Source: a virus
Lineage: Duplodnaviria; Heunggongvirae; Uroviricota; Caudoviricetes
DNA: 11,251 bases
IMG/VR virus record: IMGVR_UViG_2713896736_000010
Direction: 5' to 3' (one strand)
The number at the start of each line of letters is the position of its first letter. Position 1 is the first letter of the stretch. Positions 147 to 3,100 of the stretch are shown here, piece after piece. The notes beneath the pieces are model-generated. The model did not search any database. It saw nothing but the letters and a program-made list of their open reading frames with translations, and was not told the origin of the DNA. Position numbers and translations under genes: made by a program.

Positions 147-3100
147 ACTCCACTCCCACTTTTTTGTTGTACTCGCGGTTAAACCGATCCACGGCAATTT
201 TCATATCCCGCTCAACCGATTTCACCATCGCCGACTGTTGCGCCAGACTGAGAGTACTGTCGGCGTAAATGGCATCACGCTGTTTACGCAAATCCTTCAG
301 TCTCTTCCGGGTATCCTGCATAAGCCCGTTCATCGACAATTTTCCGTTGTTCTCGTCAATGAACGCCGTTCTTTCTGCACCGGTCAGACTCTTCAGCTCT
401 GCGTGATACTGCGCAACCTCTGTCATCCGGTCGTACATCTTCTGCTGGTCAGCATACGGCATCACCTCACCTGAAATTTTCCCCAGGAAGGGCACCTGCT
501 GCTCCGGTATATCAATACCGTTCAGCGATTTCACCGCCGCATCCGTGGTTTTGGAAATGAAGCGCCCTGTCCCTCCGGAGATATAGTCAATCCAGTATTT
601 CAGTGATTCCGGCGTGACATCCACCGCACCGGAACGGTACTGGCTGCCACCAGAGAACGCATTCAGCCAGGATGCAAACGCCTTGTACGCTTCTGGCGTT
701 GAACGTCTTCCCAGCTGGCTGTCAGGTTTTGGTGTACCAAACGGCATGTTCTCCTGGTAAATCTGCGCCCCCATGAAGTTTTCGTTCATGGCAAGATTCG
801 CAAACGGACGCAGAATTGTCGGTGCTGCATTTTTCAGCAATGCCCCGGACAGTGTTTCCGACGTTTCACTGCCCACAGGACTGAATGCCCCAAGCACACC
901 ACCAACAACATTACCGGCAGCACGTGAAGCGGTCAGGTCGCCCGCTGCCATCCCTTCGGCTGTGTGACCAAGCAGGAAGAAAACGTTGTACCCGTAAGGC
1001 AGAGGAATACTCCAGTACTCTCCGGCCTTGCCCCCGAACACCGATTTCATAATGACGAGGTTACGCTCTTTCACATGAGACGGCACCTTGTCATACCAGT
1101 TAACCCCGTCATCATCCTCCCCCGCAACACTGCGGTTAAGCGAGCCAAGCAGATAACCCGCTCCCACAGCTGCAAGCGCGATTTTCTGCGGTACATTGAG
1201 ATTCTTCCAGCGAAGGCGCTCCAGTAACGGCCCGTCGCCATTAAGATGTCCGAGCGTTCTCACCAGGTTTGCGGTCCCCTGAATGCTGGCGTTGGCGAAC
1301 ATGTACAGCGAGTTCATCAGCGCTCCCTGCTCACCACGACGGTTAAAGTTCACCGTCATGTTTTTGGCAAGAGACGCCGCCTGCTGGCGTGACAAACCGG
1401 CATCACGGGCGTGTTTATAGGCAGAAAGACGCAGAGCGTTTTCAACCGCCCCGTTGGCATCCTCGACAAGGTTAAGGAACGAATTCCATGCACCGATACT
1501 CTGGCCTTTCCATCCTCCCTTCGCCAGCGATACAAGGCGATCCATTTCCTTCTGCTGGCCTTCAAGGTCACCCATGTTAAACCAGCCGGTTTTACCTCCG
1601 TCCTCAACAAACTCTTTCCACACCTTCTGCCACTGTGCACCTTTTCCCGTGAGGGTTTTACCACGCAGACTGGCGTATACGGCTGACATGGCAGAACGGC
1701 TGTCTTTCACCACAGCCAGGGCGGATAAGTTATCCAGCCCTTTCAGTTTACCGTCGCTCCTTCCCTGCTCCGCCTTCAGGTTCATCACCGCCGTCTGCAC
1801 GTCACGGATGAAGTTACTGACCAGGAATTCCGGGTTATACGACGTGTTCACCGTTGCCAGGAAGCGGTTAACTTTCCCCAGCGTACGAACAAAGGCATTG
1901 CTGGTTTCCGGTCCCATATTCTTCATCGCACGCATCAGGCGCGGATCATGGAGTTTGATGTAGTACGTTTTGCCGTTCTTTTTGGTGGTGAAGTACCGGT
2001 CTGCCATCATTGCCATCGGTACAGGGCGTTCGACAACTTCGCGAATGGTTTCACCAGTTTCCTGGTCCTTGCGCTCTGCAATCGTCCGCATGGTATCCGG
2101 TCTGTCATCGGTGAATACCTGCCAGTAATCCTTGTCGGGATTATCCTGCACCAGTTTCAGGAAGGCGTTACCCACTTCGTTTTTGCGATGGCGGATCAGC
2201 GATTCGCTCAGGTCCTGTATCGCCTGAGTGGACGGAGACTGTGCCCGGGATGCACGCCCCATGGCTTGCCTGCTTTCACGTCCGCCGATGGTGAAGCCCT
2301 TACCTGTACGGGGCAGTGACACCACACCGTCAACATCCTGACCTTTCAGGGGAACGTAGTAACGGTAGGCGTTCTGCCAGGCATCCACCACACCGTTCTC
2401 TTCAAGTCCGGCCTCACGGATAAGCTCACGGCGACGGGCCAGCATATCGTCAATAATCCCTGCCAGACGGTCATACTGTGCCTGTTTGCCACTGTTACGT
2501 ACACGCTGCATGATTTCCGCCGCTTCCGCGTTGGTCATCCCCGAACCGCCGTCCGGCATTTTCGGGTTGATTTTCGCGATATGCGCGTTACGTTCCGGCG
2601 CGTGACGGGCGTAGAGGTACTCATCCAGATCGGCCTGCGCAATTTTGTAGTCCGCCAGTAATTTAGCCAGTGGCTGAACGTAGCGCTCCTTCATCACGTT
2701 CAGGTCGTTTTCCGCCTTCCCGTGGAAGAGTTCTTCCGCCATATAAGCGTTGTTACTGTCGTCCACTTTGCCGCCAGTTTTACGGATATTCTCCTGAACA
2801 GCTTTCAGCACCTGGAATTTATCCTGCATCTGGCGCACAAAACGCGATGCAATTGTCTCTTCCGGTGTCAGACTGCTGGTACGGGAGTAATACGGCCCCT
2901 TGCGAATATCTTCAGGATAGAGTATTTTATCCGCAGAGCCGCGATAAGAATGTTCCCCTTTGGGCAATTGGAGCCCTCTGTGCAGAAGGTTATCGCGGCT
3001 TAATTTTTCTCTCCGGTACAACGTTAACCCGGTCATTTCCATACTCTTCAGTTTTTTTCCATTTTCTGTACCGTAAACAGAAGCTACCTTGTTGATTTCC

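Follow-up and report, generated by a model that had tools for sequence, protein, structure and literature searches.

The closest described counterpart of the protein considered here is gp47 of the Shiga toxin (Stx)-converting phage phi24B, which is the second most abundant virion protein by spectral counts, carries the domains LPD5, LPD1, MuF_C and LPD38, is absent from the cryo-electron microscopy (cryo-EM) map, and has been proposed by the authors to be an ejection protein (10.64898/2026.04.10.717836). LPD38 belongs to a set of 40 domains, functionally uncharacterized, that Iyer et al. defined in "polyvalent proteins"; they found it only in those of the phage type, which they argued to be carried in the virion and injected along with the DNA (PMC5512222). 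Among related giants, the homologue in Burkholderia phage JC1 (gp69) is virion-associated, and PTXU04_00025, an LPD38 protein of 2,198 aa, is critical if phage PTXU04 is to infect efficiently. The stretch of viral DNA analyzed here (IMG/VR record IMGVR_UViG_2713896736_000010; 11,251 nt, referred to as the window) contains a giant open reading frame (ORF) of 2800 aa counted from a TTG codon (145–8547, minus strand; ORF list and translation), in which the region at 880–1197 (minus strand) had been singled out in a preliminary description as a C-terminal membrane-insertion module. The coordinates of this region were confirmed, and correspond to aa 2451–2556. As for its nature, we find no canonical transmembrane (TM) helix; the segment lies in a conserved and confidently folded α/β domain, and we give about even chances to the reading that it is the apolar core of that domain.

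The giant ORF is 96% identical to phi24B gp47 over the full length, with the same domains and the same last place in the late operon. Nothing substantive differs between the two, which represent the same protein in different Stx phages. Pfam matches are found for LPD5 (aa 1058–1207), LPD1 (aa 1368–1447), MuF_C (aa 1757–1846) and LPD38 (aa 2483–2688), all residues being numbered from the TTG. The match to LPD38 (PF18857; 484–1101, minus strand) scores 165.6 bits (cut-off 27) with an E value of 1.7e-48, and covers positions 2–189 of the 189 in the profile. It exceeds the curated gathering score, and the region under study spans its first 74 residues. The protein has the makings of a phage-type polyvalent protein, i.e., several unrelated domains, a mosaic N-terminal part, and a location among the late virion genes.

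The part that is common to all homologues is the C-terminal module (148–2868, minus strand; aa ~1894–2800). A phmmer search with aa 1850–2800 returned 8,555 cluster representatives at E ≤ 0.001, and 4,776 at E ≤ 1e-30, where the match is always located at the extreme C-terminus of proteins that range from 699 to 5181 aa. In the coverage map, aa ~1895–2800 are present in 150/150 listed representatives, whereas mosaicism is seen over the N-terminal 1,900 residues. The module is found in ~60-kb podophages of Escherichia, Vibrio, Ralstonia and Burkholderia, is 27% identical to the corresponding part of the giant protein of Ralstonia phage AhaGv, and is recognized by profile comparison in gp20 of Bacillus phage Palmer (probability 99.4%, 742 aligned columns). 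In one metagenome contig (L007:198-3017) the module constitutes a separate gene of 939 aa, spaced by 3 nt from the gene before it, which implies that cargo and chassis can be separated into two polypeptides.

The AlphaFold2 model of the flagged region contains three helices, S1, S2 and S3, with a β-hairpin between S1 and S2. Helix S1 (1123–1194, minus strand; aa 2452–2475) is modeled with a predicted local distance difference test score (pLDDT) of 84–92, and is located just upstream of the Pfam boundary of LPD38, yet within the same conserved block. Its apolar core (1138–1182, minus strand; aa 2456–2470; IALAAVGAGYLLGSL) is flanked by the conserved residues Q2454-K2455 and N2471-R2472. Immediately after S1 follows an acidic loop recognized by its conservation, GEDDDG (1105–1122, minus strand; aa 2476–2481), and further on, the strands of the β-hairpin (1003–1062, minus strand; aa 2496–2515), which runs into the invariant IPLPYGYN motif. 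Helix S2 (946–987, minus strand; aa 2521–2534) is amphipathic and carries the conserved E2531, and helix S3 (883–930, minus strand; aa 2540–2555; pLDDT 66–75) is Gly-rich and amphipathic, with a hydrophobic moment of 0.42, and leads to a conserved LGSFSPIG motif.

At the family level, S1 is a clear, selected and uniformly apolar feature. In an alignment of 150 representatives, each drawn from a different cluster at 50% identity, polar-set residues amount to 1.6% at aa 2456–2470, compared with 14.7% in the next-best 15-column window and a module mean of 41.8%, and charged residues account for 0–1% over the 15 core columns. In the giant protein itself, aa 2456–2470 is the sole run of at least 14 residues that is free of D/E/K/R/H/Q/N/P. 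The helix is always positioned ~316–348 aa from the C-terminus (~345 here), and its apolarity is also retained in the distant homologues of Ralstonia and Gram-positive Bacillus phages. The situation in S2 and S3 is different in that charged positions are conserved (E2531, 2538, 2542 and 2546, with E/D at 2531 in 79% of the sequences). Together with the hydrophobic moment and a family median of +9.6 for the Hessa-type sum over the S2–S3 stretch, this identifies both helices as amphipathic. Thus, although three helices are indeed predicted where "two to three hydrophobic helices" had been proposed, none is of TM grade, and the number of conserved, truly apolar helices is one.

The hydropathy scales and thresholds used here are approximate; the Hessa-type sum is position-independent, and the TopPred-like scan is home-made, based on the Goldman–Engelman–Steitz scale with thresholds of 0.6 ("putative") and 1.0 ("certain"). 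On these scales, the maximum of the Kyte–Doolittle 19-residue window (KD19) in the flagged region is 1.22, found in S1, against a usual threshold of 1.6, and the Hessa-type 19-residue sum, likewise for S1, is +6.2 kcal/mol, where control TM helices (glycophorin, M13 coat, LacY TM1, lambda S helix) give −2.9 to +1.1. The TopPred-like scores are 0.79 for S1, 0.91, and 1.08 for the S3 region (aa 2543–2563), the last of which is just "certain". The features of a canonical TM helix, i.e., ~18 or more contiguous apolar residues, KD19 ≥ 1.6 and an insertion free energy at or below ~0, are absent from the region, the S1 run being 15 residues, and no segment reaches standard transmembrane thresholds. 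Nor does the region contain a hydrophobic hairpin of two ~20-residue helices wrapped by amphipathic helices, of the colicin/Bcl-2/diphtheria toxin T type. For S1 in the family, the median KD19 is 1.31, and 1.6 is reached in only 11% of the homologues.

The AlphaFold2 model of the module, calculated from an alignment of 30 homologues, has a mean pLDDT of 80.5 and a predicted template modeling score of 0.77, and S1 keeps a pLDDT of 86–92 when aa 2340–2700 are folded alone. Co-variation was evaluated by mean-field direct coupling analysis (DCA) of 198 sequences (effective number 169); a homologue search with the LPD38 region produced 67 proteins, mostly fragments, which are too few for strong contact prediction. 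The β-hairpin is recovered by DCA through the strong pairs 2492–2498, 2492–2513 and 2497–2516. The contacts of S1 rank 37th or lower, except A2475–N2483, and are suggestive only. They include weak pairs of R2472 with D2486 and E2531, of G2464 with L2497, L2516 and F2524, as well as I2456–I2499, A2459–M2416 and A2475–V2547, which suggests that S1 contacts several neighboring elements on several of its sides. Considering the weak co-variation, the uniform apolarity and the high pLDDT together, S1 is probably a buried core helix of a folded α/β domain. No relative was identified in the Protein Data Bank (PDB), either by a phmmer sequence search with the module (no match at E ≤ 1) or by Foldseek (nothing below E 0.05; TM-scores < 0.16). 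The top Foldseek matches are helical transporters, which we treated as all-α noise and not as evidence for a membrane protein. The module and the domain accordingly have no solved relative, and match no known pore-forming domain or ejection protein.

For comparison, the ejection proteins of phages T7 and P22 were scored as controls with the same hydropathy scripts. TopPred-like peaks are 1.18 and 1.08 in the outer-membrane pore protein T7 gp14, and 1.77, 1.66, 1.11, 0.96 and 0.88 in T7 gp16 of the inner-membrane complex (KD19 maximum 1.44), and the periplasmic tunnel protein T7 gp15 has a peak of only 0.06. In P22, the peaks are 1.58 for gp7, 1.24 for gp16 and 0.76 for gp20. Compared with the ejection-protein segments for which insertion has been reported, the flagged helices score toward the lower end of the range. 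As for T7 gp16, the giant protein is the largest of an internal-protein cassette and has two weakly apolar regions, here one N-proximal and the other ~345 aa from the C-terminus. The putative TM regions of T7 gp16 are globular before ejection and refold afterward, and the protein purifies as a soluble monomer (ejection-protein review); its Gly/Ala-rich helices, with scores of 0.88–1.77, are thought to cross the inner membrane after ejection. Its best segments reach 1.66–1.77, compared with 0.79–1.26 in the giant protein. The latter has no fold match in the PDB, and no lytic transglycosylase domain was detected in it by Pfam. Homology between the two is not indicated by hhalign (probability 0.07%), and a local resemblance of "LVGGVLGFES" in T7 gp16 to "VVGGVLGAFS" here failed the profile comparison and was rejected.

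The likeness to P22 gp7/gp20/gp16 concerns the ordering of the cassette by rising size and the presence in P22 gp16 of one weak apolar segment. Unlike the giant protein, P22 gp16 comprises 609 aa and is without cargo domains, and profile comparison shows no homology to gp16 or gp20 (hhalign 1.6% and 0.08%). The virion RNA polymerase gp50 of phage N4 (~3500 aa) is similar in being a giant, packaged protein that is invisible by single-particle analysis, and no homology is claimed. Two smaller ejection proteins leave the virion before gp50, one terminal domain of which has been proposed to belong to an inner-membrane complex. Unlike the situation in the giant protein here, that domain in N4 gp50 is N-terminal, and the cargo is an RNA polymerase.

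The preliminary description placed the hydrophobic helices in an otherwise soluble, charged protein. This agrees with the content of D, E, K and R, which is 16% in the flagged region versus 28% in the whole protein, but not with the position of the best apolar segment, which is N-terminal. The top TopPred-like membrane candidate in the giant protein, above anything in the flagged region, is a Gly/Ala-rich apolar segment at aa 415–435 (7243–7305, minus strand; TIEGAAFGAAMGAPSGAVAGY) with a score of 1.26. By plain Kyte–Doolittle, the top window is aa 190–208 (1.38), and a second N-proximal apolar stretch extends over aa 190–214 (7906–7980, minus strand). The segment aa 139–417 is homologous to the N-terminal region of a Vibrio phage giant protein (30% identity, E 3e-29), where both end in a glycine zipper, and the equivalent zippers score 1.40 in the Vibrio giant and 1.45 in the Ralstonia giant, in the latter at aa 559. 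Among 120 full-length representatives, 81% have the top apolar peak of the variable part, at a score of 1.0 or above, within the first 800 aa. This recurrent N-terminal peak has its median at ~aa 305, is usually Gly/Ala-rich, and scores up to 1.87.

The small neighboring glycine-zipper protein mentioned in the preliminary description is real, and more membrane-like than the flagged segment. The 97-aa protein (9865–10158, minus strand) has TopPred-like peaks of 1.78 and 1.54, and consists of a charged N-terminal helix followed by a Gly/Ala zipper tail that ends in GGIAGALF, i.e., with a terminal Phe. The same design of a zipper and terminal Phe is seen in the syntenic 77-aa protein of the Vibrio phage, in a 257-aa protein of the Ralstonia phage, and at the C-terminus of P22 gp7 (GGGIGLLGSLF). 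BLASTP against P22 gp7 gave E values of 0.15 for the 97-aa protein and 0.14 for the 218-aa protein encoded further upstream. Because these are not significant, the shared design is a resemblance and not demonstrated homology. Should the giant protein be membrane-anchored, stronger candidates for the anchor than the flagged segment would be the N-proximal zipper and the small glycine-zipper proteins of the cassette.

The preferred reading, for which we see the chances as balanced, is that the flagged segment constitutes the apolar core of a conserved folded domain, composed of LPD38 and the helix just upstream, in the constant module of podophage giants. With the same even degree of confidence, the module can be viewed as a delivery chassis for an exchangeable N-terminal cargo, S1 being a buried core helix. 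In such a mechanism, the module would bring the protein into the capsid, would thread out via portal and tail together with the DNA in a largely unfolded state, and would then refold at the cell envelope with the variable N-terminal domains attached. S1 would nucleate the refolded domain as its buried core helix. Several points weigh against this interpretation. The burial of S1 is deduced from weak co-variation, uniform apolarity and high pLDDT, and the chassis function from architecture only. S1 is rich in Gly, Ala and Ser, with a stripe of small residues at 2453, 2457, 2464, 2468 and 2475, and its Ralstonia equivalent, QAFAALGMLASLGFYAAASGM, has 20 uninterrupted apolar residues and a TopPred-like score of 1.77, i.e., S1 in the Ralstonia branch is longer and more apolar than here. 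Furthermore, T7 gp14 and gp16 and P22 gp7 and gp16, which are reported membrane inserters, score equally weakly, and the precedent of T7 gp16 means that a folded core and a later membrane segment are not mutually exclusive. For the same reason, the outcome that the preliminary description itself had named as counter-evidence, namely that TM helices are lacking and that the segment is buried in a globular core, which is largely what hydropathy, AlphaFold2 and co-variation indicate, is not decisive for ejection proteins.

These points lead to the alternative of latent membrane insertion, which we consider tentative and somewhat improbable. S1, perhaps with S3, would be buried in the packaged or soluble protein, and after ejection the domain would open and insert in the inner membrane, so that the module becomes an inner-membrane part of an ejectosome, functionally like T7 gp16 or P22 gp16. 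Such a role would suit a virion-internal podovirus protein that is the largest of five in a cassette reminiscent of P22 7-20-16 and T7 14-15-16, and the proposal of a membrane-inserting ejectosome-type protein in the preliminary description retains this much support, in addition to the near-identity with a virion protein. The scores of S1–S3 (KD19 1.22, TopPred-like 0.79–1.08) are within the range of T7 gp14, the weaker segments of T7 gp16, and P22 gp16, T7 gp15 being at or below 0.06, and four of the six best TopPred-like apolar peaks in the giant protein cluster in aa 2407–2563. S1 is also apolar on all faces, remains so in the 150 homologues and in a Gram-positive phage, and is TM-grade in Ralstonia. 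On the other hand, the apolar span in the Stx/Vibrio clade is limited to 15 residues (~22 Å) between the conserved K2455 and N2471-R2472, the co-variation of R2472 with D2486 and E2531 suggests salt bridges within a folded domain, S2 and S3 contain conserved charged residues, and the giant protein and its cassette offer better candidates for a membrane segment. A bolder variant, which we judge unlikely, is that the constant module, which occurs in podophages of Gram-negative as well as Gram-positive hosts, represents a kind of inner-membrane subunit of the ejectosome that has not been described before, where the N-proximal zipper and S1 both insert. The variable effector domains would then be held at the entry site, or threaded through it with the DNA, by a module that shares neither sequence nor fold with T7 gp16, P22 gp16 or N4 gp50.

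Two further explanations were considered. LPD38 could be a catalytic or metal-binding domain, e.g., an envelope or nucleic-acid hydrolase acting via GEDDDG, to which the helices are mere scaffold. Conserved polar motifs surround the helices (NxTVNFNRKGE, YMFANASIQGT, GEDDDG, YDKVP..VKERN and IPLPYGYN, as well as LGSFSPIG, NENFxGxxIYxEN, PDS, RST and TGGSxYRSG), and invariant or nearly invariant polar residues are found in them, including N, R and E in NFNRKGE, D2478–D2480, N in VKERN, and NENF, PDS, RST and YRSG. In the acidic loop, D2478 is kept in 145/151, D2480 in 147/151 and D/E at 2479 in 148/151 aligned sequences, and a metal site or an envelope-specific feature is possible. The lytic transglycosylase that Pfam does not detect here is present among the relatives in the N-terminus of JC1 gp69 and in gp19, the neighbor of the Palmer protein. 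However, GEDDDG is nearly invariant in the Stx/Vibrio-type clade, is replaced by MDDDKD in Ralstonia and is missing in Bacillus phage Palmer, so the domain is kept where the acidic cluster is partly kept or lost, and LPD38 is not among the domains that Iyer et al. judged to be potentially enzymatic (PMC5512222). We therefore regard a catalytic LPD38 as quite improbable. Finally, the hydrophobic stretches might be ordinary fluctuations in a protein of 2800 residues. Shuffled versions of the protein contain an equally apolar 19-mer in 69%, an equally apolar 106-residue window in 48%, and an apolar run of equal length in 24% of the trials, which shows that the hydrophobicity in the single sequence is not beyond chance. 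The family alignment refutes this for S1, where aa 2456–2470 is an extreme outlier over 150 representatives and is kept in the Ralstonia and Bacillus homologues. Chance is hardly credible as a general explanation, and is tenable only for S2 and S3 as "hydrophobic helices".

With respect to its exchangeable part, the giant protein can be compared with Bcep22 gp75 and JC1 gp69 (the "DarB-like" proteins) and with PTXU04_00025, which are likewise giants whose genes close the virion module and whose LPD38 domain is located close to the C-terminus. Unlike the Bcep22 type, where methylase, helicase and lytic transglycosylase domains make up the cargo, the protein here has LPD5, LPD1, MuF_C and HExxH motifs. 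Two HExxH motifs are present, ALAHEWFHSLDNYF at aa 1291 (4663–4677, minus strand) and LRHEIIHHAMEH at aa 1558 (3862–3876, minus strand), both of which are outside any Pfam match at E ≤ 0.1. MuF_C in phi24B gp47 has been assigned a metallopeptidase role (10.64898/2026.04.10.717836). Unlike that preprint, Iyer et al. describe MuF-C as an RNase-like domain of the BECR type (PBECR; PMC5512222).

The giant gene is the last of five in what looks like a complete set of internal or ejection proteins (8589–11251, minus strand, and the giant ORF). In order, the operon encodes proteins of 218 aa, which runs off the window, 150, 97, 421 and 2800 aa. The 421-aa protein immediately upstream of the giant gene (8589–9854, minus strand; phrog_601) is the equivalent of phi24B gp48, for which 1,634 counts were recorded in virions, with 523 for gp51 and 129 for gp50 (10.64898/2026.04.10.717836, supplement). 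The 86-aa "bacteriocin" gp49, the phi24B equivalent of the 97-aa protein, gave a low signal of 6 in the same supplement, and a "homolog of a bacteriocin" is called a contaminant in the main text of the preprint (10.64898/2026.04.10.717836). All five cassette equivalents were thus detected in phi24B virions by mass spectrometry, and gp48–gp51 are unmentioned in the main text. Searches of the neighbor proteins against NCBIfam and Pfam gave nothing above cut-off. The cassette is syntenic in Vibrio, Ralstonia, Burkholderia and Bacillus phages, where the equivalents of the 421-aa protein have 417–510 aa, and the homologous giants are preceded by a similar set of small proteins and a ~420–510-aa protein.

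The window matches the right end of 933W/phi24B-type Stx-converting podophages (genus Traversvirus), and nearly all of it is a single minus-strand operon. Positions 1–11124 are a 100% DNA match to phage PA28, in which the giant ORF is the last gene of the portal-capsid-tail late operon and is annotated as an "LPD5 domain-containing protein". The annotated ATG at 8520 gives a protein of 2791 aa. From the PA28 match, attR and the prophage end are located at ~1–25, at the left edge of the window, and the giant ORF is the final gene before this end. The PA28 match ends at 11124, leaving out 11125–11251, whereas phi349 and some other Stx phages match up to 11251. This is a mosaic joint in the 218-aa gene, within its N-terminal part. 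A terminator-like hairpin followed by T7 (8539–8554, minus strand; CCGGCCATTGTGCCGG), of a kind that occurs on average 0.1 times in shuffled sequences, is located after the stop codon of the 421-aa gene and before the giant gene with its GGAG-ATG start (8520). This hairpin might set the ratio of the 421-aa protein to the giant protein. Directly downstream of the stop codon of the giant gene, a perfect 9-bp inverted repeat with a 10-nt loop (CATGCCCCG ... CGGGGCATG; 113–141) is without a T-run, and the scan for terminators did not pick it up.

Previous work has described the protein, the domains in it and its presence in the virion, and the ejection-protein idea is that of the 2026 preprint (10.64898/2026.04.10.717836). 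A search for earlier proteomics of 933W virions brought up nothing relevant to this protein. Apolar helices are not mentioned in that preprint, where the word "transmembrane" occurs 0 times, and no earlier mention of transmembrane or apolar segments in these proteins was found there or in the LPD38 literature that we located. Within this limited search, four points appear to be new, namely the ~900-residue module, the single apolar helix, the recurrent zipper near the N-terminus, and the calibration with the T7 and P22 proteins. The calibration bears on how weak, Gly/Ala-rich helices in phage internal proteins are to be judged, in that the accepted segments of T7 and P22 also fail TM criteria, and hydropathy alone is not enough. 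Giant proteins of this kind make up 14–22% of the genome in the commonest Stx-converting phages and their relatives, and are abundant in virions. How they are stored, ejected and positioned is a question raised by the authors of the phi24B cryo-EM study, and the 900-residue module, S1 and the N-terminal zipper provide targets for addressing it by mutagenesis, fractionation and cryo-electron tomography.

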